From Chthoniobacterales bacterium (lineage in GTDB: Bacteria > Verrucomicrobiota > Verrucomicrobiia > Chthoniobacterales > Chthoniobacteraceae), in the NCBI GenBank assembly GCA_038326125.1, contig JBBQJR010000001.1, positions 1-32,033 of the forward strand: DNA of 32,033 nucleotides, written 5' to 3'. Each line of letters opens with the position of its first letter. Position 1 is the stretch's first letter. Positions 2,933-22,061 of this stretch are shown in pieces. Below the pieces are notes generated by a model. The model saw only the letters and a program-made list of their open reading frames with translations. It was not told the origin of the DNA and ran no database searches. The position numbers and the translations under genes were made by a program.

Positions 2933-4060
2933 TCACTTTTCCGCCGCTTCCTCGGGCTCGCGGCGCGAATGCACCCACACGCTGTTCACGAGGCCGAAGC
3001 TGAACATGAGCATCAGCGCGAACGTCCCGCCGTAGCTCACGAGCGGCAGCGGCAGTCCTGTGATGGGCATCAGCGCGATCGTCATGCCGATATTTTGAAA
3101 GACGTGGAAAAAAACCTGCGCGGTGATTCCACCGACAATGAGGACGCCGAAAAGATCGCTCGCTCGCGCCGCGGTGAGCATGCACGCGATCACGAGCACG
3201 CCAAACGCGCCGATCAGCGTGACGCCGCCGAGGTAGCCCCACTGCTCGCCGATCGTTGCGAAAATGTAGTCGGTGTGCGCCTCCGCCGCGGGGATGAGCC
3301 CGAGTTCAAGCTGCGTGTCTGGCGCCTTGAACCCTTTCCCGCGAAGGCCCGCCGAGCCGATGGCGATCAGCGATTGGTTCACGCCGTAGCTCGTGCCGCG
3401 CGGATCTACATCGGGATCGAGAAACGTGACCACGCGATCGCGCTGGTACGGCTTCAATCCAAAGTTCATTTTCAGCGGAGCCAGCGTCAGCCCCGCGAGC
3501 ACCACCAACGCCATCCAGCGGATAGGCAGTCCGCTCAAAAACAGCAGCGCCAACAGCACCGGCACCCAAGCGATGGTCATACCGAGATCGGGCTGTTTCA
3601 TGATGAGCACCATGGCCGGCGCGGCGATAATCCCGGTGCCCGCGATTCGGATCGCCGGATGCCAGCGCCGCGCATAGCTAAGAAAAAGCGCGATGGTGAG
3701 GATGCCGCCCACGGCAGCCATTTGCCCCGGCTGGAAAGGTGGCATGCCCGGCAGCTTCAGCCAGCATTTGGCGCCGTTCACCTCCACGCCCCGGCTCGTG
3801 TAGGTGAGCGCGACCAGCACAAGGCTCACGAGGTAAAATGGCACCGCCAACCATTTCGCCCAATGGTAATCCACCAGCGAGACCACGAGAAAAACGACGA
3901 AACCCACGCCCACAAACATCGCCTGACTTTGCCAATACCTCGCGTTCGGATGCAGATACGAAGCTCCATTGATGAAGAGCACACCCGCGAGTGAAATCGC
4001 GAACACCGCCGCGAAAAGCAGCCAGTTCATGCCGAGCAATTTCCGGAGAAGCGGAGTCAT
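2933..4060 (-). CDS. rodA: SEDS-family peptidoglycan polymerase (RodA/FtsW family, RodA-like)
   Basis: Polytopic membrane profile. Conserved blocks: KQPDLG, YQRDRVVTFLDPDVDPRGTSYGVNQSLIAIGSAGLRGKG, HTDYIFA and PLPLVSYGGT. I chose the ATG at 4058-4060 (MTPLLRKLLGMNW). Confidence 0.85.
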   Translation of the reverse strand: MTPLLRKLLGMNWLLFAAVFAISLAGVLFINGASYLHPNARYWQSQAMFVGVGFVVFLVVSLVDYHWAKWLAVPFYLVSLVLVALTYTSRGVEVNGAKCWLKLPGMPPFQPGQMAAVGGILTIALFLSYARRWHPAIRIAGTGIIAAPAMVLIMKQPDLGMTIAWVPVLLALLFLSGLPIRWMALVVLAGLTLAPLKMNFGLKPYQRDRVVTFLDPDVDPRGTSYGVNQSLIAIGSAGLRGKGFKAPDTQLELGLIPAAEAHTDYIFATIGEQWGYLGGVTLIGAFGVLVIACMLTAARASDLFGVLIVGGITAQVFFHVFQNIGMTIALMPITGLPLPLVSYGGTFALMLMFSFGLVNSVWVHSRREPEEAAEK

Positions 4061-4106
4061 CGTCGAACGTCCCGCAGCCCGGTAAATTTTCCGAAATTGG
4101 GGTTTG

Positions 4107-4194
4107 AAACGCAGAGACGCAGAGACGCAAACCAAAATGAAGCCTGCGGTGACACCTGCTTTGTCGTCCTCCGCGTCTCTGCGTCTCCGCGTTT
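4107..4194. repeat. Long hairpin with arms made of tandem octamers, between the ABC ATPase 3' end and the rodA 5' end
   Basis: Left arm 4107-4128 is aaacgcagagacgcagagacgc. Right arm 4173-4194 is gcgtctctgcgtctccgcgttt. They pair over 22 positions with 1 mismatch, and the loop is 44 nt. Confidence 0.6.
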
Positions 4195-4219: not shown

Positions 4220-5008
4220 TCAGGCAAACTTCGGCACCGCCGCGAGCAGCTTCCGCGTGTACTCGTGCTGCGGGTTTTCGTAAATTTGCTCCGCGGACGC
4301 GCTCTCCACGATTTTGCCGTGATACATCACCAGCACCTGATCGCTGATGTGTTCCACCACCGCGAGATCGTGCGCGATGAAAAGATACGTGAGGCCGAGC
4401 TCGTCCTGCAAATCCTGGAGCAGATTCACGATTTGCGCCTGCACGCTCACATCGAGTGCGCTCACCGGCTCATCGCACACGATGAACTCCGGCTTCACCG
4501 CCAGCGCGCGCGCGATGCCGATGCGCTGCCGCTGCCCGCCGCTGAACTCATGCGGATACCGTTCCATCATCTCCGGCTTCAAGCCGACCTGCTTCATCAG
4601 TTCCGCCACACGCGCCCGCCGATCCTCGCGCGTCATCGCGGGAAAATGAATCTCCAGCGCCTCGCCGACGATTTGGAAAATCGAAAGCCGCGGATTCAGC
4701 GAACCGAACGGATCCTGAAAAATCATCTGCATCCGCCGGCGATATGGCCGAAATTTTCCTTCGCGCATCGGCAGCACATCGCGCCCCTCGAACAGAACCT
4801 CGCCCGCAGTCGCCGGGATCAGTTTCAGCAGCGCGCGGCCGATCGTCGTTTTCCCGCTCCCGCTCTCGCCCACGAGCCCGACGGTCGTGCCGCGCTCGAC
4901 GGCAAATGAAACATCATCCACCGCCTTCACATCATCCGTGTGCCGTCGGAAAACACCGGTGCGGATCGGAAAATAAACTCTGAGATGGCGGACTTCGAGC
5001 AGTGGCAC
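4220..5008 (-). CDS. ABC transporter ATP-binding protein, oligopeptide/dipeptide (OppF/DppF) type
   Basis: Walker A GESGSGKT, signature FSGGQRQR, Walker [13 protein letters not shown] and H-loop FIAHDL. The start is a GTG at 5006-5008. Confidence 0.9.
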
Positions 5009-5162: not shown

Positions 5163-6665
5163 TCACTTCGTCGCGAGCGGCAGCGCGGCGAGCTGATGAG
5201 GGGACGCGCCCATTTTCAGCCGCGTGCCGTCGGTACTTTTCAAAATGAGACTCGCAGCCATCGTCTGCACGGCGGCGGCGAGGCGCGCGTCGTCGGGGAA
5301 GATTTTCGCCAGCGTGATCAGTTCCGGCAGCGCCTCGACAGTGAGGCCCATCGCGTCGAACTCATCGAGCAGCGCGCGAGTCGCGGGCTTCGCGACCAAC
5401 TCAACTTCGCCGCGTTTGCCCGCAGGCAGCGCGGTCGCGAGATCGCCGAGCGCGCGCAGGATGATGAGATGATAGACCGTGCGCGCGTTGTGCGGGTCGA
5501 GCCAGCGGCCATTCGGCGCCTGCCCCGACGCGACACCGACGCGGAATTTCCGCAGTGCGCCGTCGAGATATTTCGCGTCGCCCGTCACGCGCGCCGCGTG
5601 CGCGAGCAGCGAGTCGGAGAACGCGTTGTAGTTGAAATTTGCGCAACACGGCTGGCCGAGCGCCCAGTCCGCGGCACGCAGGCCGGCGCGTTTCCACTCG
5701 TCGCTGTGATGGAGTTCGCCCGCGAGCAGGAGCGCGGTGCCGCACAGCCCGGTGTCGAACTGCGTGCCGCCATCCGGTGCCGCCGAGACGACCCAGCCGT
5801 CGCGCACCGCGATTCTTCCCTCGGCGAGCGCCTTCGTGATCATGTCGCCGAAGCGGATGTTTTTCCCGCGCAAATCGGGAAAGGGAAAATGCCCCTCGGG
5901 CTGCTGCATCGCCGTGAGGATGCCCGCGAGTCCGCGCGTGAGCCGGTCGAGCGCGGCGAGATCGCCGGGGCGGTGCTTCCCCGCGAAAGGACGAATCATG
6001 ACCACGCCGCGCAGGATGTACGCGTAGGTGCGCGCCATTTTATCCGGCAGCGGCCTGCCCTCGGACAGCGTGCGGTTCAGTTCGGTCTCGCTCTTGAGCG
6101 CGTCGAGGAAAAGGTTCGCCGCCTCGGCCTCCGTGAATGATTTCGGCGGCACTTTGCTCCCAGCGCGGCGTCCGTCTGGCACGCCCGCCTGCTCGCCGAG
6201 AATCGCGCGCATCTCCTCCGTGACCGCGCGCACGGCGGCGGAGTTGTCCGACTTCATCGCGGTGTCGAGCTTTGGCCCGACGGGCTTGAGCTTTTCGAGC
6301 ATCGCCGCGTTCGGATGAAAGAGCGGCTGTCCCGCCATGGACCAGCCGCCAGGATCGAGACCGACGGACTGCTCGACTTTGCGCAGCTCATCGTCCGCGT
6401 CCGCCGGCAAGCCGCGCTTGAAATCGCGCCTGAGTTTTTCCACGCTTTCGACGAGCGTGTGGTCGTTGGTCTCACGCGCGATCTGCATCGCCATGCGGAC
6501 GCGTGCCTCGGCGTCTGCCACGGTGAGAGTCGCTGCGCCGCACATGGCAATCAACGGCGCGCTGAGAAGGAGGGCAGGGAGAAATTTTTCATGGAGGCGA
6601 TTTCGTTCGATGGCTGTGCGTACTTGGAGACGCGCGCAGAGACGGAAAATTACATGAAGCCGCAA
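5163..6665 (-). CDS. Exported hypothetical protein with a helical-repeat (alpha/alpha-toroid-like) C-terminal half. Start uncertain.
   Basis: GC3-rich 500-aa ORF. It has a hydrophobic leader KFLPALLLSAPLIAMCGAATLTVADA and repeated helix-pair patterns (GLCGTALLLAGEL, NYNAFSDSLLAHAARVTGDAKYLDGA, TVYHLIILRALGDL). The only in-frame upstream start is the TTG at 6663-6665. A better ATG at 6590-6592 is one nucleotide out of frame (see findings). Confidence 0.7.
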   Translation of the reverse strand: MRLHVIFRLCARLQVRTAIERNRLHEKFLPALLLSAPLIAMCGAATLTVADAEARVRMAMQIARETNDHTLVESVEKLRRDFKRGLPADADDELRKVEQSVGLDPGGWSMAGQPLFHPNAAMLEKLKPVGPKLDTAMKSDNSAAVRAVTEEMRAILGEQAGVPDGRRAGSKVPPKSFTEAEAANLFLDALKSETELNRTLSEGRPLPDKMARTYAYILRGVVMIRPFAGKHRPGDLAALDRLTRGLAGILTAMQQPEGHFPFPDLRGKNIRFGDMITKALAEGRIAVRDGWVVSAAPDGGTQFDTGLCGTALLLAGELHHSDEWKRAGLRAADWALGQPCCANFNYNAFSDSLLAHAARVTGDAKYLDGALRKFRVGVASGQAPNGRWLDPHNARTVYHLIILRALGDLATALPAGKRGEVELVAKPATRALLDEFDAMGLTVEALPELITLAKIFPDDARLAAAVQTMAASLILKSTDGTRLKMGASPHQLAALPLATK

Positions 6666-6758
6666 CGCGGCTTTACGGCGTGGGCGCGCTCGGCAGAGCG
6701 CGGCGGCGCGGGCCTCCGCCCGGTGCCTAACGGTGCTTCTGTTCGCGCCCAGAGCGTC

Positions 6759-6965
6759 TCAGCGCCATTCGAGTTTGTCGATGAACAGGTCGAACTCGCG
6801 CAGCTTTTCATGCTGCTCCTTGAGCGCGACGAGCACGCCTTCGTTCGTCTTTTCCCGCGCGGTCACCATGCCCATCGAGAAGCCGTGGCGTTCCTTTTCG
6901 CCGGGTTTTTTCCAGTGGTAAAAAACGCGGGCCCGGAAAGTTGGTGCGCTGTTTTCGTCGCTCAT
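6759..6965 (-). CDS. Small hypothetical protein (68 aa)
   Basis: The ATG at 6963-6965 gives MSDENSAPTFRARVFYHWKKPGEKERHGFSMGMVTAREKTNEGVLVALKEQHEKLREFDLFIDKLEWR. Third-position GC bias matches neighbouring genes. I recognise no family. Confidence 0.5.
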   Translation of the reverse strand: MSDENSAPTFRARVFYHWKKPGEKERHGFSMGMVTAREKTNEGVLVALKEQHEKLREFDLFIDKLEWR

Positions 6966-7013
6966 GGGCTGATGAATCAAATAATTGCGCCGCGGCGGCA
7001 AGGACGGAGCGCG

Positions 7014-9398
7014 CTATTTTTCCACCGTGAAAATGAGCACGTATCGCTGCGGGACGAACTGCGCGTAGGTGGAAAATTTGAACCCGTAGTGCGTGAGCTG
7101 CGCGATGAGCATTTCCTTCGCGATGCGCGGGCCATAGTAGCCGCCGGCCTTGTCGGGCAGCGGCATATTGTCGGCGATGACGAGCTTGCCGCCGGGCTTG
7201 AGCGCCTTGCGCAGGCTGCCGACGAAGCCGTCCTTCACATACTCGATCGAATTCACGTAGGTCGCGTGGTAGAGCGAGCAGAGGAAGGCCATGTCAATCG
7301 AGTTTTCCGGCAGCGTGGCGTCGTTTTCCTTCGAGAGGACGGTCTTCACATTCGTGATGCCCGCGGCCGTGGCGGAGCGGTGCAGATTTTCGAGCTGATC
7401 CTTCACGAGGTCCAACGCGAGCACACTGCCGGTTTTGCCAACCATGTCTGCGAATTTGAACGTGAAATATCCCGCGCCGCTGCCGACATCGGCGATGGTC
7501 TGGCCGGGCTTGATGTCGAGGGCGCCGAGCATTTGATCCGTGTGCTCCCATTCGCCGCGGCGCGGGTTCATGAAGACGAGGTATTCCCACCACTCGATGA
7601 GCGTGTCCGAACTGATGTCGAGCGGCAGCAGCGGATACGGCGCGGGGAGCGCGTCCTCGAGTTCGGTCTGTTTCTCCTCGGCGAGGACCACCGGCCCGCC
7701 CTTGTTGGCGTTGCGCGTCGCCGTGAGCGTCCGCGGGGAGGACGGCGTGAGCGCTTCCGCGATGAGCACGCCGAGGCCTTTCTCACGCTCCAATTCTTTT
7801 TTACTCAGATCTTCGAGGATGGGTTTCAGCTCTTCGAGGACGTACTTGTTTTTGAGATACGTCGTCAGCCTTTTGAAATCGTCGCCGGCAAAAAATGCGA
7901 CGTAGTCCGCGACGAGCGGATTCGGGATCAGCTTCGCGCGCTCCGCCTCGGGCGTGAGCGCGTAGTCGCAGAACCATTGCAGAGCGGAGTACTCGTCGCC
8001 GATGCGCTCCTTCGGGATGAGCGGGGTGTAAAGTTCGCGCGCGGCTTTCAATTTCACCGCGTCCTTTTTGCGCAGCGCCTCAAGCATCGCCTCGGCAGCG
8101 GCGCGGCCCGCATTCGTGTAGGTCGCGGAGGTGCCGGGAAGCTGCGCTCGGAGCAGCGAGCGCTGCGAGAGCACGCGGATTTTTCCGGCGTCGCCATCCA
8201 CGATCTCGGCGATGCCGGGGGTGGCAGGGATTTTGTGCAGGTCATGCACGACGATGCCGCCCTCGGGGATGCTGAGCTTCGGAGCGTCTGGCACCTTTGC
8301 CCCAGCCGCCGGCGCGTCGGCGCGCAATTTGAAAGTGAGCATGTAACGCTGCGGAATGAACTGGTGCGTGCCGACGAGTTCAAAGCCCATGTGCCGGAAC
8401 TGGCTGATGATCAGTTCGCGCGCGATGTATGGGCCGTGGTAGGGGAGCTTGCCCTCGACCGGGCCGTTGTCCACGAGGACGAAACGCGCGCCGGGATTCA
8501 TGATGGCCTTCACGCTGCCGATCATCTCGGCGCGCTCCTCGTCGGTCATGATCGCGTAGAGATTGTGGTAGAGCGAGCACATGAAAATGAGGTCCACTTT
8601 CTCCGGCACGCCGATGTTTCCCTCGCGCGGCATGACGGGCACGACGTTCGGGATGTGCAAATCGCCGATCACTTTTTTCAGGTAAATGAGGTGATCGTTG
8701 TTGTTGTCGATCGCGAAAACTTTTCCGGTCGGCCCGACGAGCTTCGCAAACTGGAAGGAAAAATAGCCGGGGCCGCTGCCGATGTCGGCGACCTTCTCGC
8801 CCGGCTTCAGCTCGAGCGCGGCGATCATCTTGCTCGTCTTCTCCCAAGCCTCGCGGCGCGGATTTGCAAAGAGGATGAAGTCCTCCATGAAGCGGCTGCG
8901 AGTCGCGGAATCCGGATCCTGTTTTGCACCGGGGATTTCGTCGAGGTGATATTTGCTGCGGATGAATTCGCGGAAGTTCTTCCAGTTGTCCGCCGCGAGA
9001 AAATTGCGGAAACTGCGGACGAATGGGTCGGCGAGGAACTCGTCGTTGCGCACATGCTCCGGCGCGAGTTCGCATTCCATGAGCCACTGGAGCGCGGTGT
9101 ACTCGCCGCCGAAATTTTCATCCGGAATGATGCGCGCGTAAATCGTGATCGCGTTTTTTGCCGCACCGCGATCACCTTTTTCCAAGAAATCAAGGATGCT
9201 GCGCGCAGCATCCTTCCCGCCTTGCGTGACGTCGAAAGAATCCAAACTGCCCAAGTGGATGAGCGAGGATTTCGAAGTGACATTGATGACCGTGTCCGCC
9301 GACACCGCGGTTTTTTCGTCGGCAAATCCGACGGAGGGAACCAAGGCGAGAACGGCGAGGAAGGAGAAGAGCGGACGGCGAAACGCCACGGTTTTCAT
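7014..9398 (-). CDS. Sec-exported protein made of two tandem modules, each a helical domain plus a class I SAM-dependent methyltransferase
   Basis: The ATG at 9396-9398 gives MKTVAFRRPLFSFLAVLALVPSVGFA/DE (signal peptide). Module 1 has LKPGEKVADIGSGPGYFSFQFAKLVGPTGKVFAID ... FIPQRYMLTFKL. Module 2 has IKPGQTIADVGSGAGYFTFKFADMVGKTGSVLALD ... FVPQRYVLIFTVEK. The upstream helical parts are also paralogous (GGEYTALQWLMECELAPE versus GDEYSALQWFCDYALTPE). Confidence 0.85.
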   Translation of the reverse strand: MKTVAFRRPLFSFLAVLALVPSVGFADEKTAVSADTVINVTSKSSLIHLGSLDSFDVTQGGKDAARSILDFLEKGDRGAAKNAITIYARIIPDENFGGEYTALQWLMECELAPEHVRNDEFLADPFVRSFRNFLAADNWKNFREFIRSKYHLDEIPGAKQDPDSATRSRFMEDFILFANPRREAWEKTSKMIAALELKPGEKVADIGSGPGYFSFQFAKLVGPTGKVFAIDNNNDHLIYLKKVIGDLHIPNVVPVMPREGNIGVPEKVDLIFMCSLYHNLYAIMTDEERAEMIGSVKAIMNPGARFVLVDNGPVEGKLPYHGPYIARELIISQFRHMGFELVGTHQFIPQRYMLTFKLRADAPAAGAKVPDAPKLSIPEGGIVVHDLHKIPATPGIAEIVDGDAGKIRVLSQRSLLRAQLPGTSATYTNAGRAAAEAMLEALRKKDAVKLKAARELYTPLIPKERIGDEYSALQWFCDYALTPEAERAKLIPNPLVADYVAFFAGDDFKRLTTYLKNKYVLEELKPILEDLSKKELEREKGLGVLIAEALTPSSPRTLTATRNANKGGPVVLAEEKQTELEDALPAPYPLLPLDISSDTLIEWWEYLVFMNPRRGEWEHTDQMLGALDIKPGQTIADVGSGAGYFTFKFADMVGKTGSVLALDLVKDQLENLHRSATAAGITNVKTVLSKENDATLPENSIDMAFLCSLYHATYVNSIEYVKDGFVGSLRKALKPGGKLVIADNMPLPDKAGGYYGPRIAKEMLIAQLTHYGFKFSTYAQFVPQRYVLIFTVEK

Positions 9399-9623
9399 AG
9401 GTAAAAATTTTCGGCGCGGGAGAGTGGACGCGCCGATGCCGGGATGCAATCGCAACCTCACATCCCCCCTATTCGCAGCGGCGGAAACCCCAAGTTTGAA
9501 CAGAAGCGTGTCGTGAAAACTCGCTGCAGAAACGACTCAGCCGTGACCCGAAGGTGCGCTCGGAGGTGCAAATCTGCGCGAACTTCCGCCCGCGCCTACG
9601 GACGGAAGCGGCGCTCGCCGCAG

Positions 9624-11135
9624 TTAGAACAGCGACTGGTTGAGATACGGATTCAACGGCCCCTCGGCGTAATCTTCCCGCGGATACGGGATGAAATCGG
9701 TGTTGTGGAACTGCTGCGCGACTTCGTCGGCGAAGAACGCTCCGAGCGTGGTGACGCCGATGGCGCGTTCCGTTTCATACACGAGTCCGTGCGCCTTGAG
9801 CGCGTCGATCTTGCCGCGGAAAACTTCGTCCATCGGCAGGCCGGTGAGACGGCGGTAATTCGCCATGCGCACGTTGCGGTTTTTGATCGGCAAGACGATG
9901 GCCCAGCGCGCCTGATCGTCGGCGTTGCGCCGGTAGCCGCGGTTGATCGGCAGATGTCCGCTCTCGATGGACGAGTAGTATTCGTCGAAGTTCTGCGTGC
10001 AGAGCGCGAAGCGGTCGCGCAGGCTGCTGAACGCGGTTAAGCCAATCCCGATCTGGTCGAACTGCACGCAGCACTGGTTGTGCGCGTACACCGAATAGTC
10101 GCCCCGACGGCGCGAGAAGACGCGGCGCAGGTTTTCGGTGTAGCCGTAGTGGTTCAGCATGAGGATGGCCGCCTGCTTCATGATGAACTGCGTCTCGTTG
10201 TCGGGATATTCCTCCGGTTTGTTGTTGACGTAGTTTTTCACCGCGCCCTGGTGGTCGCCGTAAGCCTCGACCTTCAGACGATAGAGCTGAATCTCATGCA
10301 CACCGAGCTGGCAGGCTTCCTCGATCACGTCGAGCCAGTTGTCCACAGTCTGTCCGGGGTAGCCGAAAATGAACTCGATGTTGACCATGAAGCCCGCATC
10401 CAGCGTCTCGCGAATCGCCTGCAGCGCCTCGTTCTTGCCGTGGTGGCGGCCCATTTTCTTGAGGATGGACATGTTCAGCGATTGCACGCCGATGGTCAGC
10501 CGGTCCACGCCGTATTCGCGCATGAGCGCAAGGCGCTTTTCGCCATCGGGACCGATGAGCGTGTTCGGATCGACGTCATAGTTAAACTGACGGCAAATCG
10601 AGAGGTCCACGCGCTCGACGAAGCCGACGAGAAACCGCTCAAACTGATCCGTGGTGAGGAACGTCGGCGTGCCCCCGCCGACGAGGACCGAGCGCGCCTT
10701 GATGCGATCCACGCCGAGGCGGTCGCGCCAGATATCCGTCTCCTTCATGAAGGCGTTGATGTATTTCTGCTTCTCGTCCACCTGCGGGCCGAGTTTCACG
10801 GGATAGTGGCAGAAGACGCAGTGCGAATTGCAAAACGGCACGTGCGCATACACATCCACCGCGCCATCGGCGGGCAGCGTGTAGCCTTCGAGCAGCTCGT
10901 CGTCGCTCATCGGCGGATACATCGTGATCGGCGGATAGTGGACGGACGGGTAAAAATCGCCACGCTTGTTCACGAGGCCGGCGTCGCGCACGCGGTGGAA
11001 ATCCTCCAGCCGCTCCTTCGCCTTTTCCACGAGCGCGGCGCGGTCGAGCGGGCCAGCGTCCCACGTCGGCGGAAGTTCGTGAGGCGCGAGGAGCTTGGGG
11101 TTGATGGCTGTGGGGTCGAGCAGTGCTGCGTTCAT
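9624..11135 (-). CDS. Radical SAM protein of the HemN/HemW/class C methyltransferase-like family
   Basis: HVPFCNSHCVFCHYP (CxxxCxxC, 10809-10832), VLVGGGTPTFL and a long HemN_C-like C-terminal region. The ATG is at 11133-11135. Confidence 0.85.
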   Translation of the reverse strand: MNAALLDPTAINPKLLAPHELPPTWDAGPLDRAALVEKAKERLEDFHRVRDAGLVNKRGDFYPSVHYPPITMYPPMSDDELLEGYTLPADGAVDVYAHVPFCNSHCVFCHYPVKLGPQVDEKQKYINAFMKETDIWRDRLGVDRIKARSVLVGGGTPTFLTTDQFERFLVGFVERVDLSICRQFNYDVDPNTLIGPDGEKRLALMREYGVDRLTIGVQSLNMSILKKMGRHHGKNEALQAIRETLDAGFMVNIEFIFGYPGQTVDNWLDVIEEACQLGVHEIQLYRLKVEAYGDHQGAVKNYVNNKPEEYPDNETQFIMKQAAILMLNHYGYTENLRRVFSRRRGDYSVYAHNQCCVQFDQIGIGLTAFSSLRDRFALCTQNFDEYYSSIESGHLPINRGYRRNADDQARWAIVLPIKNRNVRMANYRRLTGLPMDEVFRGKIDALKAHGLVYETERAIGVTTLGAFFADEVAQQFHNTDFIPYPREDYAEGPLNPYLNQSLF

Positions 11136-11186
11136 AGGGCGGTAGGATTCTTTGTTTGGGGAAGGTTGCGGAAAAGGTGGGGAAAG

Positions 11187-12236
11187 TTAAATCAGCGGCG
11201 CTTTGCCGAAGCGCAGGTCCGTTTTGCCGACCATGTCTTCGCAGCGCGCAAAGCCGGGCGAGCAGCGGTCCGTGGAATAGATCGGGAACAGCTTTTTGAA
11301 CTGCTCGGGCGTGCCATCGTGAATCGTCACGGTGTTCGCGCCGGCCATCAGTCCGAAAACCTGTCCGCCCGGCTTGCCCCGCTCGAGGCAGCTCGTTGTG
11401 GGCATCAGCCGCTTCGGATACATGATGCGCATGAGGGCCATTTGGTTGAGCGCGATTTCCACATCGCCCATCGGCTGGTCGTGGTAGTTGCACATTTCGC
11501 CGGGGATGAAAACGGTGCAGCTCATCATCGAGAGATCGAATTTCCCGAGCAGTTCAATGTCATCAATCACGTCGTCGAGCGACTGCCCAGGCATGCCGAC
11601 CATGTTGCCGGTGCCGACTTTGTAGCCGATGTCCACGAGATCCTGCAGGCAGGCGAGGCGCTGGTCGAGCGTGTCGCTCGGCTTCCAAGTCGAGTAGAGC
11701 GACGGGCTCGACGATTCAAATTTCAGGATGTAGCGGTCCGCACCCGCTTCCTTCAGCCGGACGTATTGGTCGTGGCTGAGATTGCCCATGCACAGGATGA
11801 TTTCGAGATCCACGTGGCGCCGCTTGATTTCCGTGCAGCACTTCGCGGCGTAATTGACGAACGTATCCGAGTCGTTTTCGCCTGACTGCAGCAGGATCAC
11901 CCGGCGGCCCATCGAGTATAAAAAGTCCACCTGCTCCATCAGCGGATCCATCTTGATCACGTAGCGCTTCAGCTTCGATTCCTTGGCCATGCTGCAGTAG
12001 TTGCAGCTCTGCTGGCAGACATTCGAAAGCTCGATCACGCTGCGCGTCTCGACCTCTTTCGCGGGCCAAACGGCATCGCGCCGCTGCCGAGCCAGCGCAA
12101 ACAGCTCTGCCTGCTGCGCCCCCCTCGCCAAGAGGCCTCGCCGGAGCGTCTCTCTCGAAAAATTTCCGGCCGAAAGCGCTGCCACCAGCGGCTGTGTCGT
12201 GCCAACAGTTTCGTCTTTAGTCAGGGTGGTGATCAT
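11187..12236 (-). CDS. Radical SAM protein of the HydE/PylB/BioB-like family
   Basis: IELSNVCQQSCNYCSM (CxxxCxxC, 11994-12017), VILLQSGEN, EAGADRYILKFESS and GTGNMVGMPGQS. A GGAGG lies 8-12 nt upstream of the ATG at 12234-12236. Confidence 0.85.
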   Translation of the reverse strand: MITTLTKDETVGTTQPLVAALSAGNFSRETLRRGLLARGAQQAELFALARQRRDAVWPAKEVETRSVIELSNVCQQSCNYCSMAKESKLKRYVIKMDPLMEQVDFLYSMGRRVILLQSGENDSDTFVNYAAKCCTEIKRRHVDLEIILCMGNLSHDQYVRLKEAGADRYILKFESSSPSLYSTWKPSDTLDQRLACLQDLVDIGYKVGTGNMVGMPGQSLDDVIDDIELLGKFDLSMMSCTVFIPGEMCNYHDQPMGDVEIALNQMALMRIMYPKRLMPTTSCLERGKPGGQVFGLMAGANTVTIHDGTPEQFKKLFPIYSTDRCSPGFARCEDMVGKTDLRFGKAPLI

Positions 12237-12397
12237 CTCGTCAATCCTCCGTTGTTGGGTTGGTTTTGTAAAGATTCAGTTAAGCGCGGGCAGATTTCAA
12301 GAACGAAATGTGAAAAGAGTGTAACACCGACTTGAACAGATCAGACGCCTCAACAGTCGAGCTCATTTGGAATCTCCCGCCACTAAAAACGCGGCGC

Positions 12398-13294
12398 TCA
12401 TGCGTTGCAAAGCACGACCACGCCAGCGAGCGCGGTCAGTGTGCCCACGATTTGCACCGGGGTGATTTTTTCTTTCAGCAAAAGCGCCGCCAGCGGCAGC
12501 ACGAACACCGGTTCGAGCGAGTTCAGCGTGTTCGCGATTGCCACATCCACATGGCGAATCGCGAGCAGTGACAGCCAGAATCCGCCGAAAGTCACCACCG
12601 CCACCGCGAACAAAAACGGCCCCGCGAGACCCGCCGTCCTCCCCTCGGCAAACCACGCCCGCAGGCGCCCCGTGCATACTCCCACCAGCGCGATGCCGGC
12701 CGCTCCGGCGAGCATCCGCACGCAGGTCGCCTGCATGGTCTGCTGCATCGTTTCCGCCGCGCCGCTATCGAGCCCTTGCTTCGCAAAAATTACCGACACC
12801 GCCATGCACGCGACCGAAAGCAGGCCGAGCACGATGCCCCGCGTCCGCGAACGCTGACGGTCGCCGGAAAGATTCGCCCACAGCACGATCGCCACGCCCG
12901 TGAGCACGCACGCGATTCCCAGCCACGCCCGCGGCGTCGGCCGCTCGCCGAGCCAGACGAGCGCGAGCAGCGCCGTGGCGACTTGGCCGACCATCATCAG
13001 CACCACCAGCGTCTGCGGCCCGAGATGCTGCAGCGCGGCAAAAAACAGCGTGTCCCCCAGCGCAATGCCCACCAACCCGCTCGCCACCAGCATCCCCAGA
13101 TCGTGTGTGGCGATAGTCGTGAAGCCGAGAAAAACCAGCGCGATCCCAAGCAGGACGACGCTCACCACCGCCTTCAGCAGCGTCATCGCCAGCGGCGACA
13201 TGCTTTCCCCGATGCGTTTGAAAAGAATCGCCCCGAGCGCCCAGGAAGCAGCCGAACCCAAGGCCGCCCCGATGCCGATCGCCGCTGAAGTCAT
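12398..13294 (-). CDS. EamA/DMT-superfamily transporter
   Basis: 298 aa, almost entirely hydrophobic helices, with two EamA-type halves (for example LVWLGERPTPRAWLGIACVLTGV and LLLKEKITPVQIVGTLTALAGVV). The start is an ATG at 13292-13294. Confidence 0.85.
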   Translation of the reverse strand: MTSAAIGIGAALGSAASWALGAILFKRIGESMSPLAMTLLKAVVSVVLLGIALVFLGFTTIATHDLGMLVASGLVGIALGDTLFFAALQHLGPQTLVVLMMVGQVATALLALVWLGERPTPRAWLGIACVLTGVAIVLWANLSGDRQRSRTRGIVLGLLSVACMAVSVIFAKQGLDSGAAETMQQTMQATCVRMLAGAAGIALVGVCTGRLRAWFAEGRTAGLAGPFLFAVAVVTFGGFWLSLLAIRHVDVAIANTLNSLEPVFVLPLAALLLKEKITPVQIVGTLTALAGVVVLCNA

Positions 13295-13395: not shown

Positions 13396-15663
13396 TTAGA
13401 ACCTAAGCTCCATGCCCACACTGACGCCGTGCGCAAAGAAGTCCGTCGTATTGGAGAGGCGCGACGGGCTCGTCGTGCTCACGCGCGGGTCCGCTTGGTT
13501 AAAGGTCTGTCCTTTGGGAATCTCGCGATTTATCTCATTACCCGGTCGCATCACATTGCTGTAGTAGAGAAAGTCGTAGGCCAGCGTCGCCCGCAACCGC
13601 GGCGACAGCGCATAGCCAATCTTAATCTGCGCTTCCGGCACCACCGCAAACTTATCCGACGAAGTGCGCCCCTCATTCGCAGGCTGCGCAAAAACGCCCT
13701 GCGTCCCCGTGGCATAGGGCGCGCTGAAATTGATCGAATAAAACCCGCCGGCCACATTTTGTATTTCATGGCTCACACCGAGCGACACCCGCGCCGTCAC
13801 ATCCACCGAGAGCCGGCCGGTCGAGTAACTCTCGCGCAGTCCCAGCGTCCCGCCGATGAACTCGTTTTTCGTCGAAAATCCATCCGTCACCACGCCAAAC
13901 TGCCCCCGGTAAAACCCCGACACTCCTTGGATTTGCGCGGTCAGGTTTAGGCTCTCACTGAGTTGCACGTAACGTACTCCCGCCAAGGCCGACAGTTCCC
14001 ACGACGGCTTGCGGTACAGACTAATGACCCCATTTAACTCCGCGCCCCATAGCTCCAGCTTATTCACCACCAACGCCGCACCGGCGATAACTCCGCTGCC
14101 GCGCGAGCGCGCCGGATCATTCGGCAGGGAGTAAGGCAGGCTGTCCTCGCCGGCGCGCACGGTCATGGTTCCGATCGTGTAGGGAATGCTGTTATAGACC
14201 GGAATGCCGAGCACCGGATTGCCAGTGTCATCGCCGTGCGAACCATAGCCTGCACTTTGTTGCTGCAAGGCAAATGCGCTCGCCTCCACGCCGAATTTGT
14301 GGTCGTCGCCGAAGGAATAGCCAAGCTTCAGCCTCAGGCCCGAGAAATTTTGAAACCGCTGATTGTCGTCCCCGCCCTGCGCCGGCGCGTGCGGTGCACC
14401 GTAGAGCACCGTGGAGTCCGCTCCATTTTGCGCCGGCACGCCGAGCAGTCCGTGATGCGTCGTCGCCACCGGCCCCGCCGAGATCAGCGGGATGGAAAGT
14501 GGCGCGTCCTTCACCCACCACATGAGATATTCCGCACCGCCGTAAAATCTCGAGGTCGGTGCCGGCGCCCACATCGGTGCCGCATCGGGACCGCTGACCA
14601 CGGACTTATAAGACTTATGCGCGGATGTCGGACTTCCCGCCTTCTCCGCGCCCGGACCAAACATCCAGGTAAGGCCCGCCCGCAGCCGGGGCCCCGGCAC
14701 GGCCTGCAATCCGCTGTTCGAGATACTTACCGGAAAATCGACGCCGATGTGCGCGGTCAGCCGGTCCTTCCAAGTGTAGGTCAGCTTCGGTCCAAAATAG
14801 ACAACCGTGAACCCCGTCGAATCCACCGGCTGATCCTTGTAAGTATCCGATCCCTTGTGTTCGCCCGAAATGGCCGCCTCCAACGCCAGCTTATAGGAAG
14901 GGTCGGAAAGCAGGAAGTAACCCGGCCCGCCGTCCCAAGTCGTGTCATTGGCAAACCTATAGCCATAGTCGCCCTCCGTGCAGATGGCATACTGCACCGA
15001 AGCATTGAAAAACGCGCGGTTGTGCGAGTAACGAAAGCTCGTGCCGAGGCGCGCATCAAAGGACCCGCTGCCAAGGGTAAGATCATAGCCGTGGATGGCG
15101 CTTTCCGCTGAGTTATTCCCGTGCGTATGCCCGTGCGTCGTGCCAAAGGAATCCAAAAGCGCACTGAGCCGCCTCGTCTCATCCGCAAGCTGCGAAGTAT
15201 CTCCCGTCGGAAACTTCAGCCCGCCCAGCAGGCTCCAAGTAAAGGAACTGTCCGCCGTGTCCTTGCGCAAAAGCAGCAGCCTCCCGACGAGGATCGCATC
15301 TCCGAGCCCCGATTCACTCCCCTGCTCGGTCCCGGTGTCACTTGGCCGGCGGAAGGTCCGGTGGATGTATGGAATATTCGCCTGCAGGCTAAAATGGTCG
15401 TTGAAGTTATATCCGAGGATGAACTGCGTGGTCGAACTCTCCAGACTCTGATTCGCCACGTTCGGAATCTCGCGCCCGTCAAGTTGCAGGCTGCCAAAGC
15501 TCGTGAACTGCTCCGCCGCCCCGGTGAACCAACTCCCCGCCGCCCCGCCGCCGGGATGGTCTCCCGTGTAAATCGCGCACAGTTCGCAAGCCTCCGCCCG
15601 CTGCATCCCTCCCGCCAGCACCAGCGCCGCCGCGCCGAGAATCCCGCCCGCCAGCGCTTTCAT
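13396..15663 (-). CDS. Outer-membrane protein fusing an N-terminal MetA/phenol-degradation-like barrel to a C-terminal BBP7-like barrel
   Basis: The ATG at 15661-15663 gives MKALAGGILGAAALVLAGGMQRAEA (signal peptide). The N-terminal half has GLGDAILVGRLLLL...LLGGLKFPTGDTS and LTLGSGSFDARLG. The C-terminal half has FYGGAEYLMWWVKDAPLSIPLIS...GLRLKLGY. The protein ends in the aromatic terminus VGMELRF. Confidence 0.75.
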   Translation of the reverse strand: MKALAGGILGAAALVLAGGMQRAEACELCAIYTGDHPGGGAAGSWFTGAAEQFTSFGSLQLDGREIPNVANQSLESSTTQFILGYNFNDHFSLQANIPYIHRTFRRPSDTGTEQGSESGLGDAILVGRLLLLRKDTADSSFTWSLLGGLKFPTGDTSQLADETRRLSALLDSFGTTHGHTHGNNSAESAIHGYDLTLGSGSFDARLGTSFRYSHNRAFFNASVQYAICTEGDYGYRFANDTTWDGGPGYFLLSDPSYKLALEAAISGEHKGSDTYKDQPVDSTGFTVVYFGPKLTYTWKDRLTAHIGVDFPVSISNSGLQAVPGPRLRAGLTWMFGPGAEKAGSPTSAHKSYKSVVSGPDAAPMWAPAPTSRFYGGAEYLMWWVKDAPLSIPLISAGPVATTHHGLLGVPAQNGADSTVLYGAPHAPAQGGDDNQRFQNFSGLRLKLGYSFGDDHKFGVEASAFALQQQSAGYGSHGDDTGNPVLGIPVYNSIPYTIGTMTVRAGEDSLPYSLPNDPARSRGSGVIAGAALVVNKLELWGAELNGVISLYRKPSWELSALAGVRYVQLSESLNLTAQIQGVSGFYRGQFGVVTDGFSTKNEFIGGTLGLRESYSTGRLSVDVTARVSLGVSHEIQNVAGGFYSINFSAPYATGTQGVFAQPANEGRTSSDKFAVVPEAQIKIGYALSPRLRATLAYDFLYYSNVMRPGNEINREIPKGQTFNQADPRVSTTSPSRLSNTTDFFAHGVSVGMELRF

Positions 15664-15858
15664 CCCGGCTCTACCGTCCGACTGCGAAACTCTCGCGGCA
15701 CCGCTCGGGCACCGGACATTTTGGGATGCGGGCCGGACGAGGCCAGGGGGGATGGAGGAACATTTGGGTCGCATGAGCGCGCACAGTATTTTCGGTCTTC
15801 ACGAATGCAATTGGCAATGTGAGCGCGGGCTCCCAAAAATAAGTTCCCCGCGTTTTGC

Positions 15859-17214
15859 TCACCGCTTCGCAGGCTCCGCGGCTTTCGCCCCGAGGCAAAT
15901 CAGGTGCTTCACCCCGCGGACGAAAATTTGGCGCTGCGCGAACGCCGGGCTCGCGAAAACTTTTTCGCCGAGCGCCGATCGGCCGAGTTCCTTAAATTCA
16001 CGCCCGGCTTCGACCGCGATCAGCGTCCCGCTGCTCGTGATGAGCACCAGCCTGCCGCCCACGATGCTCGGCGACGCATTGCAGGCTTCGTCAAAATCGT
16101 GCTCCCACTGTTTCTTGCCGTCCTTCGCGTCGTAGCAGGTCGTCACGCCCGCGTTGTTCACCACGAAAATCAGCTCGCCGTTGCTCACGGGGCTCGTCAC
16201 GTCCGGGATGCCGTCCTCCGCGATCCAGCCGAGATGCGTCTTCGTCACGTTGCCCTGGCCGTCGGGGCGGATGGCTTGCAGCTTGTTTGCCGGGCTCACG
16301 ATGAAAAGCGTGCCGCCCGCGAAGACCGGCGACGGCGTCACCTCGCCGTCGAGACAATCCGCGCGCCAGAGTTCCGCGCCGTCCTTCGGCGCGTAGGAAA
16401 TCACGAATGGGTTTGCGAGGGTGACGAGCTGCGATTTTCCGGCGGCGGCGAAAATAATCGGCGTCGCCCACGAAGCACCCACGGCGCGCGGCTGCTGCCA
16501 CACGACCGCGCCGGTCGCGCCGTCGAACGCAGTCAGCTTGCTCAGTTTGTCATCCACCTCGCCCTGATCGAACTGCACGATCACGCGATCCTCCCAAGTG
16601 AGGAGCGAAGTCGCGTGGCCGTATGGATTCTTCGGCGTGCCGAGAAATTTCGCCCACGCGACGCTGCCGTCGAAATTGACCGCAGCGAGATCGCCATTGG
16701 AAAACATCGCATACACGCGCCGCCCGTCGGTCGCGACGGTGCCCGCGGCCATGCCGCACTGGTCGGGGACTTCGGGATTCGTGTCGGGACTGCCCGCGGT
16801 CTTCGGCACGACGGTCTGCCAGAGCAGTTTTCCCGTCGAGGCATCGAAGCACATCACCACGCGCTTCGCCTCGTCGCCGCCGGAAAGAAAGACGCGGCTG
16901 CCCCACACCACGGGCGAACTGAAACCGGCCACCGGCACGGCGACGGACCACGCAATGTTCGCGCCGGTCTGCACATCGCACGTCAGCGGCACATCGCACT
17001 CCGCGCACACGCCGCCGCCCTCCGGCCCGCGGAAGCGCGGCCAGTTCGCGCGGTATTCCTCCGGCGATGGCAGGTCCGCCGCGAGCGCGACTGCGAGGCA
17101 AGCGAATGCGGAGAGCGAACGGATGAAATTTTTCCAAAAACACGCACCGCGATCAAAGAAGGACCACGGATTTCGCGGATGGCACGGATGGGAAATTGGT
17201 CTGCACGCAATCAT
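15859..17214 (-). CDS. Exported PQQ-like beta-propeller repeat protein. Start uncertain.
   Basis: Leader FIRSLSAFACLAVALAADL, then NWPRFRGP and repeated propeller blades (FDASTGKLLWQ, FDGATGAVVWQ, KDGAELWR, KDGKKQWE). The nearest in-frame ATG is at 17212-17214. A GTG at 17145-17147 would give an ideal leader but is one nucleotide out of frame (see findings). Confidence 0.8.
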   Translation of the reverse strand: MIACRPISHPCHPRNPWSFFDRGACFWKNFIRSLSAFACLAVALAADLPSPEEYRANWPRFRGPEGGGVCAECDVPLTCDVQTGANIAWSVAVPVAGFSSPVVWGSRVFLSGGDEAKRVVMCFDASTGKLLWQTVVPKTAGSPDTNPEVPDQCGMAAGTVATDGRRVYAMFSNGDLAAVNFDGSVAWAKFLGTPKNPYGHATSLLTWEDRVIVQFDQGEVDDKLSKLTAFDGATGAVVWQQPRAVGASWATPIIFAAAGKSQLVTLANPFVISYAPKDGAELWRADCLDGEVTPSPVFAGGTLFIVSPANKLQAIRPDGQGNVTKTHLGWIAEDGIPDVTSPVSNGELIFVVNNAGVTTCYDAKDGKKQWEHDFDEACNASPSIVGGRLVLITSSGTLIAVEAGREFKELGRSALGEKVFASPAFAQRQIFVRGVKHLICLGAKAAEPAKR

Positions 17215-17247
17215 CCGCACCATCCGCGCAATCCGTGCAATCCGTGG
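17164..17247. repeat. Imperfect long hairpin built from tandem 9-mers (CATCCGNNN/AATCCGTGN), between the divergent propeller genes
   Basis: Left arm 17164-17191 has three units: ccacggatt tcgcggatg gcacggatg. Right arm 17212-17247 has four units: catccgcac catccgcgc aatccgtgc aatccgtgg. The outer 9 bp pair perfectly and the inner units pair in more than one register. Confidence 0.65.
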
Positions 17248-17411
17248 TTGAATGCATCCTCGCCATCCGAGGGACGCGGAATGTCGCACCGTCGGGATCG
17301 GCTTGTCTGCGTCAGGAGTGTTCATGGCGGATCGGAAGATTTTCGGAAATGGGGCTACCATCGTCGCGGCTGCGGAGTTGTTCACGGCGCACCGCATCGG
17401 AATTTTCCACC

Positions 17412-19046
17412 ATGACCCACCCAGCCGCCCTGTCTCTCGCAATGTCCTTTTTTCTCGCGCTGTCCGCGCACGCCGCCGACTGGCCCGCGTGGGGCGGCGC
17501 GGATCTCGGGCGGAACATGGTCTCCGCGGAGAAGAATTTGCCCGACACTTTCAAGCCCGGCGAAAAATCCGCGAAGGGCGACGGGATGCTGCCGGGCACG
17601 ACGGAAAATGTCCGCTGGGTCGCGAAGCTCGGCAACCTCATCTGCGGCAATCCCACGGTCGCGAACGGCCGCATTTTTGTCGGCACCGACGACGCCAGCC
17701 TGCAGGGCGACGCGCGGCTGAAACGCACGAAAGGCGGCATGGTCTGGTGCCTCGATGAAAAGACGGGCAAGATGCTCTGGCGGCTGCCGGTGCCGGTGCG
17801 ACCGAAGGATCAGCTCCCGAAGGACGCGCACTACGGCCAGCAGAGTCTCGGCGTGTGCTCCGCGCCGACGGTCGCCGGCGATCGCGTGTATGTCGTCACG
17901 AGTGCGTGCGAAATTTTGTGCCTCGATGTGCATGGGCAGGCGAATGGGAACGACGGCGCGTTTCAGGACGAGGCGAAGTACATCGCCGGCGCGAACAACC
18001 CACCCGCGACGCTGGAAAAAACCGACGGCGACATCATTTGGAAATACGATCTCGTGAGCGAACTCGGCATCTGCCCGCACGATGTCGCGGCGTGCTCGGT
18101 GCTGGTTGATGGCGATATTTTATACTGCACTTCCGCGAACGGCGTGAACCACGAGCACACGTTTTGCCTGCGGCCAGACGCGCCGAGCTTCATCGCGCTG
18201 AATGCGAAAACCGGCAAGCTGCTCGCGACCGACACCGAAGACCTCGGCCACACGATGTGGCACTGCTTGTGGTCGCCGCCGACGGTCGGCGTGGTGCATG
18301 GAAAACGGCTCGTGTTTTTCGGCGGCGGCGACGGCGTGTGCTACGCGTTCGCGGCGCTGACTTCCGTGCCGGAGCAGCCGGTGCATTTGCAAAAAGTGTG
18401 GATCTACGATTGCGATCCGCCGAACTACCGCGACCCACTCGGCGACGGCAAACCGTTCAATTACTACGTCGGCGACAAGCGCAAAAAGTACACGACGAAC
18501 CAGAACGACGGCACCTTCCTCGGGCCGAGCGAAATCATCGCGTCGCCCGTCTTTCACGAGGGGCGGGTGTACTGCACCATCGGCCAGGATCCGATGCACG
18601 GGCGCGGGCGCGGCATCCTGCATTGCATCGATGCTTCGAAGACTGGCGACATCACGCACACCGGCTGCGTGTGGAAGTACGACGGCATCGAGCGCAGCAT
18701 CAGCAGCGTGGCGATCCGCGACGGCCTGCTCTACACAGCGGACCTCGCCGGTCGCGTGCATTGCCTCGATGAAAAAACCGGCAAGCTGCAATGGCTGCAC
18801 GACACCGAATCCGAAACGTGGAGCACGCCGCTCGTCGCGGACGGAAAAGTGTACGTCTGCACGAAGAAGAAACTCGTGACCCTCGCCGCCGGCCGGGAGA
18901 AAAAATTGCTCTCGGAAGTCACGCTCGGCTCGAGCGCCTACTCCACGCCCGTCGCAGCAAACGGCACGCTTTTCGTCTGCTCGCAGAGCTACCTCTGGGC
19001 CGTGCAAAAAGGCGCGACGCCCGTGCCGCTCGCCGCGGGCGAGTAG
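17412..19046 (+). CDS. Exported PQQ-like beta-propeller repeat protein
   Basis: The ATG at 17412 gives MTHPAALSLAMSFFLALSAHA/ADWPAWGG. Repeated blades include LDEKTGKMLWR, NAKTGKLLAT and LDEKTGKLQWL. Confidence 0.85.
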   Translation: MTHPAALSLAMSFFLALSAHAADWPAWGGADLGRNMVSAEKNLPDTFKPGEKSAKGDGMLPGTTENVRWVAKLGNLICGNPTVANGRIFVGTDDASLQGDARLKRTKGGMVWCLDEKTGKMLWRLPVPVRPKDQLPKDAHYGQQSLGVCSAPTVAGDRVYVVTSACEILCLDVHGQANGNDGAFQDEAKYIAGANNPPATLEKTDGDIIWKYDLVSELGICPHDVAACSVLVDGDILYCTSANGVNHEHTFCLRPDAPSFIALNAKTGKLLATDTEDLGHTMWHCLWSPPTVGVVHGKRLVFFGGGDGVCYAFAALTSVPEQPVHLQKVWIYDCDPPNYRDPLGDGKPFNYYVGDKRKKYTTNQNDGTFLGPSEIIASPVFHEGRVYCTIGQDPMHGRGRGILHCIDASKTGDITHTGCVWKYDGIERSISSVAIRDGLLYTADLAGRVHCLDEKTGKLQWLHDTESETWSTPLVADGKVYVCTKKKLVTLAAGREKKLLSEVTLGSSAYSTPVAANGTLFVCSQSYLWAVQKGATPVPLAAGE

Positions 19047-20088: not shown

Positions 20089-20149
20089 TCGGCACAATCT
20101 GTAATCCAAACGGCGGCGGGTTGCGTAAAGTATTTGCCGGGTCGCATGG

Positions 20150-21801: not shown

Positions 21802-21996
21802 GAGTTTCACGCGAGAGTGCTTCGCAACCGCGCGGATTTTGCCCAGCCGAAATTTTGAAGTTCCGGAAGAAGTGAAATCCATGCGTGCTTTCGATCCAAC
21901 GCCTCCCGCAGCGGGCTGGATGCACGCTTTCAACTTGTCGCCGCTCGCGCCGAGGCCGATGCGGGTTTCCTTTTTCGCCACTTGCCTGCCACGGGT

Positions 21997-22038
21997 GAAT
22001 TTGGAACTCGGAATTTGAATCTCGGAACTTGGAAGGCG
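21997..22038. repeat. Degenerate tandem heptamer array (GAANTNG x6), intergenic
   Basis: The units are gaatttg gaactcg gaatttg aatctcg gaacttg gaaggcg, read directly from the sequence. Confidence 0.6.
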
Positions 22039-22061
22039 GCGGCATTGGCGAAAGAGCCGCC

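Follow-up and report, generated by a model that had tools for sequence, protein, structure and literature searches.

A pair of radical-SAM genes in a Chthoniobacterales genome lies in a conserved four-gene cassette with an EamA carrier and a predicted exported methyltransferase

Introduction

Two genes encoding radical S-adenosylmethionine (radical-SAM) enzymes lie side by side in a 32,033-nt stretch of a Chthoniobacterales genome (assembly GCA_038326125.1, contig JBBQJR010000001.1, positions 1 to 32,033), hereafter the window. One product, rSAM-1, is HydE-like and the other, rSAM-2, is HemN-like. A first-pass annotation described them as an orphan pair with no recognisable pathway partners and compared them with the NosL and NosN enzymes of nosiheptide biosynthesis. 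Are the two genes really isolated, and what could their products make? Our analysis indicates that the pair is no orphan: an EamA-type carrier gene on one side (12398-13294) and a tandem methyltransferase gene on the other (7014-9461) are partners conserved across phyla. The explanation that we favour, with a probability of roughly 45%, is that the radical-SAM pair forms the cytoplasmic half of a conserved biosynthesis-and-export cassette, spread between distant lineages, that makes and exports a small modified metabolite.

Gene models and conservation of the cassette

Both radical-SAM reading frames were recovered on the minus strand where the first-pass annotation had placed them, rSAM-1 at 12236..11187 (349 aa) and rSAM-2 at 11135..9624 (503 aa) with a gap of 51 nt, and the motifs attributed to them were found in the translations (IELSNVCQQSCNYCSM, LLQSGE, GADRYILKFES and MVGMPGQS for rSAM-1, HVPFCNSHCVFCHYP and GGGTPTFL for rSAM-2). 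The GC content at third codon positions (GC3) is 0.80 for rSAM-1 and 0.84 for rSAM-2, and this codon-position pattern identifies both as true coding frames. Two long antisense open reading frames (ORFs) on the plus strand, at 6315-9404 (1029 aa) opposite the methyltransferase gene and at 10080-11885 (601 aa) opposite the radical-SAM genes, have their highest GC content at codon position 1 and were discarded as high-GC artefacts. In the window the genes are ordered as an EamA carrier (12398..13294, minus strand, 298 aa) directly upstream of rSAM-1, the HydE-like rSAM-1, the HemN-like rSAM-2, and a tandem class I SAM methyltransferase predicted to be secreted (7014..9398, minus strand, 794 aa from Met22; the ORF extends to 9461 and 815 aa).

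A scan of one genome per species returned 178 relatives of rSAM-2, and the neighbourhood counts given here refer to the best 80, each with 54% identity or more, and to genes within 10 kb of rSAM-2; many of the loci without partners lie on short contigs. A HydE-like gene was found near rSAM-2 in 68 of the 80 loci, with a median gap of 169 nt and always within 4.3 kb, an EamA gene with 40-57% identity in 65, and a methyltransferase bearing the helical N-terminal domain (N-domain) described below in 56. The 80 loci come from Verrucomicrobiota, Planctomycetota, Omnitrophota, Victivallales, cyanobacteria, Chromatiaceae, Competibacter, Methylococcales, Bradyrhizobium and other Alphaproteobacteria, Acidobacteriota, Desulfobulbus and five methanogens, so that rSAM-2 orthologues at or above 54% identity occur in about ten bacterial phyla as well as in methanogens. 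The closest relative, locus L007 of another Chthoniobacterales genome, is 96% identical to the window, and the same four families are also found together around the rSAM-2 orthologue of Calothrix sp. 336/3, of a Phragmitibacter chromosome and of a Competibacteraceae genome. At least 20 distinct orders of the four genes were observed with unchanged membership, and such constancy of membership under reshuffling strongly suggests functional coupling. The pairwise identities of rSAM-1 correlate with those of rSAM-2 (Pearson coefficient of 0.75, Mantel p <= 0.001), which indicates that the two genes were inherited or transferred together. Of the findings that the first-pass annotation had named as grounds for rejection, none was obtained: the adjacency is strongly conserved in related genomes, and neither protein scores as a housekeeping bioB or hemN/hemW product.

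Loci of Firmicutes contain a HemN-like gene and a methyltransferase gene and have neither the HydE-like gene nor EamA, from which we conclude that the invariant core consists of the HemN-like enzyme and the class I methyltransferase. Relatives of the tandem methyltransferase that are 42-49% identical carry the source labels Lachnospiraceae, Oscillospiraceae and Roseburia. In public records, relatives of the radical-SAM proteins are labelled "biotin synthase" and "oxygen-independent coproporphyrinogen III oxidase". NCBIfam and Pfam hold no curated family specific to the cassette proteins, a full-text literature search found no publication describing the cassette, and a review of HemN-like proteins notes that uncharacterised bacterial clades exist (PMC10114718). 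The sequencing runs that contain the window are soil and sediment DNA only, and no RNA runs were found for the Crocosphaera locus.

The HydE-like enzyme rSAM-1

rSAM-1 has the radical-SAM motif CxxxCxxC at C74/C78/C81 and belongs to the HydE/PylB/BioB branch, as the first-pass annotation had proposed. Its NCBIfam scores are 197.7 bits for HydE, 87.9 for PylB and 85.7 for BioB, all under the curated cut-offs (254.6 bits for TIGR03956, 348.2 for TIGR03910 and 225 for TIGR00433, respectively), followed by ThiH (58.5 bits), HydG (35.7 bits) and NosL (TIGR04158, 16 bits, E 0.004, cut-off 400). The best solved relative is HydE of T. maritima (E 7e-54), with about 310 residues aligned over nearly the full length. 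The family divides into two subtypes, the scanned members of both having HydE as their best match. Subtype 1, with 47-65% identity to the window protein, occurs in Verrucomicrobiota, Planctomycetota, Victivallales, Omnitrophota and a few Gammaproteobacteria; subtype 2, with 32-40% identity, occurs in cyanobacteria, Proteobacteria, archaea and some Verrucomicrobiota. The cassette copies of Calothrix and Methanothrix reach 247.4 and 221.6 bits against the HydE model, again under its cut-off.

In HydE, a 5'-deoxyadenosyl radical attacks the sulfur of the substrate, and the conserved residues Met224 and Met291 handle the Fe(CO)2CN species (PMC10114646). The first methionine aligns with M237 of rSAM-1 and is thus kept in the window protein, and it is Phe in the cyanobacterial/archaeal subtype; the position of the second is Ile in rSAM-1 and Asn in that other subtype, in which both methionines are consequently replaced. 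No auxiliary-cluster cysteines are conserved across the rSAM-1 family alignment. Together, the sub-cut-off score, the loss of M291 and the lack of auxiliary-cluster cysteines lead us to regard rSAM-1 as HydE-like in fold and not as a HydE. No hydA, hydF, hydG, bio or hem gene is present among the annotated genes of the window, and none is recurrent in 82 neighbourhoods, a survey of neighbourhoods and not of whole genomes.

The HemN-like enzyme rSAM-2

The scores of rSAM-2 mark it as HemN-like and at the same time as neither HemN, HemW nor ChuW, with 125.4, 116.1 and 135 bits against cut-offs of 324.95 (TIGR00538), 205.4 (TIGR00539) and 400 (ChuW-HutW, TIGR04107), respectively. Its top NCBIfam model is STM4012 (NF006067), matched over nearly its full length at 162 bits, yet far below the cut-off of 380. 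As had been pointed out from the sequence, the fourth cysteine of HemN (CxxxCxxCxC; C71 of the E. coli enzyme) is absent and aligns with a Tyr. The HemN_C-like tail claimed for rSAM-2 stands in part: the Pfam HemN_C model has no match in the window protein and a weak PF06969 match in many orthologues, and the family profile can be aligned to residues 34-441 of the 457 of E. coli HemN (1OLT), C-terminal domain included (E 8e-42). CxxxCxxC and GGGTP are invariant across the family. rSAM-2 therefore combines a HemN-like fold and C-terminal domain with CxxxCxxC and GGGTP, the features by which class C radical-SAM methylases are recognised, and is a putative member of that class. Two further invariant motifs are specific to the family, HYPPI..Y near the N-terminus and YAHNQCC. 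NocN is the second-best solved relative (E 1.5e-17).

The second SAM molecule of HemN contacts Y56, E145, F310, Q311 and I329. In the alignment, Y56 is kept as Y96 of rSAM-2, and E145, F310, I329 and Q311 correspond to D187, Y350, F369 and A351; these changes look conservative, and most of the contacts would be kept. HemN-like enzymes use one SAM to generate a 5'-deoxyadenosyl radical, which in turn acts on a second SAM to give a methylene radical (PMC10114718).

The tandem methyltransferase, its predicted export and the EamA carrier

Pfam methyltransferase domains match the methyltransferase of the window twice, and in the protein a predicted signal peptide precedes two units that each combine a helical N-domain with a Rossmann domain. 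A confident AlphaFold2 model (pLDDT 83.9, pTM 0.83) shows the same two N-domain and Rossmann units. Foldseek matches are small-molecule methyltransferases, including the tandem plant phosphoethanolamine methyltransferases, 3DH0, TleD, CcbJ, MitM and ArsM; the Rossmann domain dominated these matches, and no separate Foldseek match was evident for the helical N-domain. The SAM motif I, DxGxGxG, is invariant in both halves, and a CS(L/M)YH motif is conserved in both. A PADLOC match to mad2 (MADS, 124 bits) raised the possibility of anti-phage defence; it covers only the methyltransferase domain and is generic, the other three cassette proteins gave nothing, and this candidate was rejected.

The signal peptide, predicted to be of the Sec type, is encoded at 9321..9398 on the minus strand and reads MKTVAFRRPLFSFLAVLALVPSVGFA in the translation. 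Homologues in two-membrane bacteria have an equivalent N-terminal signal peptide or membrane anchor, and those of archaea and Firmicutes have neither. We compared the presence of signal peptides, called heuristically and then checked by eye, with that of EamA in 60 scored loci, among them the window and two Firmicutes loci. Signal peptide and EamA occur together in 42 of the 60, and seven more have a signal peptide by eye; the call is unclear in one further EamA locus (L039). Eight loci have neither, namely those of five methanogens, the unclassified locus L081 and the two from Firmicutes, and only two have a signal peptide with no EamA inside the flank. This pairing indicates that the carrier tracks the location of the methyltransferase. 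ABC exporters occur both with and without signal-peptide methyltransferases.

The carrier itself matches the EamA family (PF00892) twice (E 1.2e-38). Carriers with two EamA domains are known to act as antiporters of SAM and S-adenosylhomocysteine (SAH) in Chlamydia and Rickettsia (PMC3104491), and in view of this precedent the EamA protein of the cassette may plausibly supply the periplasm with SAM or with an S-adenosyl intermediate. These DME-family proteins (Chlamydia CTL843, Rickettsia RP076) resemble the window carrier in having two EamA domains, but they import SAM into parasites, whereas the window carrier would have to supply the periplasm; the link between them consists of the shared architecture and the signal-peptide correlation only.

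Comparison with known systems

One of the nearest parallels is the C10P/C10Q two-component cyclopropanase of CC-1065 biosynthesis (also YtkT and Jaw5), in which a HemN-like gene stands beside a gene for a class I methyltransferase-fold protein, as it does in 56 of the 80 cassette loci. There, the HemN-like enzyme makes a SAM-substrate adduct that the methyltransferase-fold partner resolves with loss of SAH (PMC6050322). By analogy, the HemN-like enzyme and the methyltransferase of the cassette may constitute a two-step one-carbon transfer system. The two systems differ in several respects. C10P and C10Q belong to actinomycete antibiotic clusters, whereas the cassette occurs in many phyla and in methanogens, with no polyketide or other natural-product cluster around it. 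Its methyltransferase has a novel helical N-domain, is often tandem and is predicted to be exported in two-membrane bacteria, and the cassette further includes a HydE-like enzyme and an EamA carrier.

Each radical-SAM enzyme also departs from its known relatives. HydE (T. maritima, 3CIW and others) shares with rSAM-1 the barrel and the CxxxCxxC motif; it differs by the score under the cut-off, the lost M291, an M224 retained only in the subtype of the Planctomycetes-Verrucomicrobia-Chlamydiae group and the lack of family-wide auxiliary-cluster cysteines, HydA, HydF and HydG are not neighbours, and cyanobacteria also carry the cassette. HemN, HemW and ChuW-HutW, which act on tetrapyrroles, share with rSAM-2 the fold with C-terminal domain, GGGTP and the radical-SAM motif, but rSAM-2 scores 116-135 bits against cut-offs of 205-400, has no fourth cysteine, has its own HYPPI..Y and YAHNQCC motifs, and lies in no heme context. 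For STM4012, the highest model, the score is likewise far under the cut-off.

Proposed mechanism and alternative explanations

Under the explanation that we favour, a cassette producing a small exported metabolite, rSAM-1 would perform HydE-type radical chemistry on a small common metabolite, probably sulfur- or amino-acid-like. rSAM-2 would then use two SAM molecules to form a SAM-methylene radical and add a one-carbon unit to the substrate modified by rSAM-1. The methyltransferase would carry out the last SAM-dependent step, either a methylation or the resolution of an S-adenosyl adduct as by C10Q, and in two-membrane bacteria this step would take place in the periplasm. The EamA carrier would move across the inner membrane whatever this step requires, either the intermediate or SAM exchanged for SAH, and the product would then leave the cell. 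The general conclusion of the first-pass annotation, a small-molecule route, is plausible.

The periplasmic part of this scheme is a bolder proposal, which we consider possible but doubtful. It holds that the Sec-exported methyltransferase is fed by a dedicated EamA carrier exporting SAM or the S-adenosyl intermediate of the HemN-like enzyme, such that the final product, perhaps reactive or membrane-permeant, forms only outside the cytoplasm; methanogens and Firmicutes would perform the same chemistry intracellularly with an ABC-2 exporter, and the product would be a widespread exported metabolite.

Several observations weigh against the metabolite cassette and its periplasmic step. All the chemical steps are drawn from superfamily membership, since no member of the cassette has a known substrate, product or activity, and the counts were made on the best-scoring loci rather than on a random sample. 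rSAM-1 is missing near rSAM-2 in Firmicutes, in some alphaproteobacterial loci and in several from Omnitrophota, so that the core reaction does not require it; the N-domain methyltransferase was not found in the Omnitrophota loci, some of which instead have a class I methyltransferase unrelated to it close by. No named transporter is specifically similar to the EamA protein, whose best NCBIfam match reaches 68 bits for a cut-off of 230. We found no precedent for SAM-dependent catalysis in the periplasm, and a Sec-exported methyltransferase cannot bring its own cofactor along. Finally, the correlation between signal peptides and EamA rests on just two or three independent single-membrane lineages.

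The most serious rival is a module for the methylation and detoxification of metalloids or chalcogens (As, Sb, Se, Te, S), in which the periplasmic step would be the methylation of a toxic species by the exported methyltransferase, with the radical-SAM enzymes making or preparing either a bond between carbon and the metalloid or a carrier thiol. The best NCBIfam matches of the methyltransferase are indeed arsenite methyltransferase models (71-75 bits) and ArsM structures appear in the Foldseek list, but these scores are far under the cut-offs (263-575 bits) and reflect the generic Rossmann core only; moreover, ordinary ArsM needs no radical-SAM partner. Cysteines are available in an invariant vicinal pair of rSAM-2 (YAHNQCC), in the CS(L/M)YH motif of both methyltransferase halves and often in a secreted LTXXQ/CpxP-like protein encoded in 37 loci, although the window has no LTXXQ protein and the Calothrix copy has no cysteine. 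Many carriers come from anoxic or sulfidic habitats, yet no ArsR, ars, mer or other resistance family is recurrent in the neighbourhoods. On balance we find this rival unlikely. Modification of a protein or peptide seems to us clearly less probable still: here the target of the radical-SAM enzymes would be the exported methyltransferase or the LTXXQ protein, altered ahead of export, or else some short peptide that has escaped recognition. The secreted partners do have conserved motifs, and the HemN-like enzymes NosN and TbtI act on peptides made by ribosomes and modified after translation (RiPPs) (PMC10114718). Pfam found no SPASM or RiPP-recognition domain in the window proteins, however, no conserved small ORF was seen in the single intergenic region checked, and the Omnitrophota cassette works with other methyltransferase types. 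The HydE/BioB/PylB-branch enzymes characterised so far all act, to our knowledge, on small molecules, which also argues against a protein substrate.

The comparison with nosiheptide biosynthesis, where a class C methylase modifies an aromatic acid produced by a lyase-type radical-SAM enzyme, was not borne out. rSAM-2 does belong to the same HemN-like superfamily as NosN, with NocN among its nearest solved relatives, and the pair is adjacent and conserved; but rSAM-1, at 16 bits against the NosL model, is HydE-like and not NosL-, ThiH- or HydG-like, the pair is not isolated, as the methyltransferase and EamA co-vary with it, and there are neither thiopeptide nor RiPP genes, nor any precursor peptides, the leader ORF being unconserved. 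An isolated NosL- and NosN-like pair is accordingly a very improbable explanation. Least credible of all is a housekeeping role, with rSAM-1 as BioB or as the HydE of an [FeFe]-hydrogenase and rSAM-2 as HemN or HemW in heme synthesis or delivery. The public labels on relatives point that way, and the cyanobacterial rSAM-1 comes within a few bits of the HydE cut-off (247.4 against 254.6). Every curated cut-off is nevertheless missed, the fourth cysteine of HemN is absent, and the HydE methionines are altered (M291 to Ile in the window and Asn in the other subtype; M224 kept in the window and Phe in the other subtype). The hydA, hydF, hydG, bio and hem genes are likewise not seen among the annotated genes of the window or the recurrent neighbours, and the cassette is present in cyanobacteria. 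We know of no [FeFe]-hydrogenase in cyanobacteria.

Taken as a metabolite cassette, the locus would join a class C radical-SAM enzyme to a methyltransferase, a combination of a known kind, together with unprecedented partners and possibly in an unprecedented location. rSAM-2 proteins with at least 54% identity span Verrucomicrobiota, cyanobacteria, purple sulfur bacteria, methanotrophs, Omnitrophota and methanogens. Solving the function of the cassette would correct many annotations and provide a new function for branches of both the HydE-like and the HemN-like enzymes. If the periplasmic proposal were true, SAM chemistry would not be confined to the cytoplasm and EamA-type carriers would gain a defined role. 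Cultured carriers of the cassette exist (Calothrix sp. 336/3, Crocosphaera chwakensis CCY0110, Cyanobium gracile, Anabaena and Bradyrhizobium sp. ORS 111), which makes direct testing feasible.

The leader of rSAM-1

The leader between the EamA stop codon and the ATG of rSAM-1 (12237..12397, minus strand) has the length, base composition and ribosome-binding site that had been described from the sequence: 161 nt, a GC content of 47.8% where the window as a whole has 62.6%, and a GGAGG placed 9 nt ahead of the ATG. A block at 12240-12310 (minus strand; CTTGAA ... TTAAC.GAATCTTTACAAAAC ... GGAGG) is kept in four related Verrucomicrobiota loci, Chthoniobacterales included, and the leader diverges outside it among the same loci. 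To judge from this conservation, the block is probably the operon's own promoter region. A scan for the sigma-70 consensus gave no match, and a terminator scan gave weak terminator-like sites only. We discarded a riboswitch or other structured RNA, Rfam having given no match in the leader at the gathering threshold or at E <= 1, and also a leader peptide or RiPP precursor, as the 28-codon ORF of the leader is unconserved in four close relatives.

Additional members and neighbouring genes

Some loci contain further genes. The secreted LTXXQ/CpxP-like protein found in the cassette at 37 loci and absent from the window is helical and about 250 aa long. Exporters are also frequent neighbours. In Methanothrix, Pfam identifies a DrrA-like ATPase and an ABC-2 permease after the methyltransferase, and an ABC ATPase occurs at this place in all five methanogen loci. 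FHA-ABC-ABC-2 fusions lie near the cassette in cyanobacteria, and an FHA-ABC-2 exporter is also found in Firmicutes; a MacB-type pump follows the cassette in Competibacteraceae, and in other Gammaproteobacteria an ABC ATPase comes after EamA. Loci L087 (Lachnospiraceae) and L089 (Roseburia) combine a tandem methyltransferase devoid of signal peptide and a HemN-like gene with an FHA-domain ABC-2 exporter, a lipoprotein and Ser/Thr kinases. L087 also encodes a PP2C phosphatase, and one of the two loci an ArsB/CitMHS-type permease. This content suggests that the Firmicutes version of the cassette is under phosphorylation control.

Upstream of EamA in the window, a gene at 13396..15774 (minus strand) encodes a BBP7 outer-membrane beta-barrel porin (Pfam E 6.6e-56). 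A gene 83% identical occupies the same position in L007, and BBP7-like genes adjoin the cassette in loci L027 and L029. The porin is a possible, weakly supported accessory that may provide an outer-membrane exit route.

Two genes on the other side were considered as cassette members and rejected. The ORF at 5163-6665 (minus strand), between the methyltransferase gene and an ABC ATPase gene, encodes 500 aa with an apparent signal peptide and no Pfam match, and its GC3 of 0.81 is coding-like. Nothing similar turned up in the related loci, L007 included, and only about 390 nt separate the flanking genes in L007, which leads us to consider this ORF as a lineage-specific insertion. The ABC ATPase at 4220-5008 (minus strand) is DppF/OppF-like and has just a generic similarity to the exporters found elsewhere. 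It is followed by a RodA/FtsW gene (2933-4135), and no permease gene was seen adjoining it. A DppF/OppF-like ATPase also lies downstream of the cassette in L007-L010, accompanied by the RodA gene at least in L007.

Beyond the porin, two divergent genes at 15859-17442 (minus strand) and 17196-19046 (plus strand) encode PQQ_2/BamB-like beta-propeller proteins, their longest ORFs overlapping by about 250 nt at the starts; arylsulfotransferase-type beta-propeller genes lie near the cassette in loci L003 and L006. The region 19063-23568 (minus strand) encodes a type III polyketide synthase/FabH-like protein (348 aa), an FAD-binding monooxygenase-like protein (413 aa), a class I methyltransferase (310 aa) and two ORFs without Pfam match, and looks like a separate small cluster of the lipid or alkylresorcinol type.

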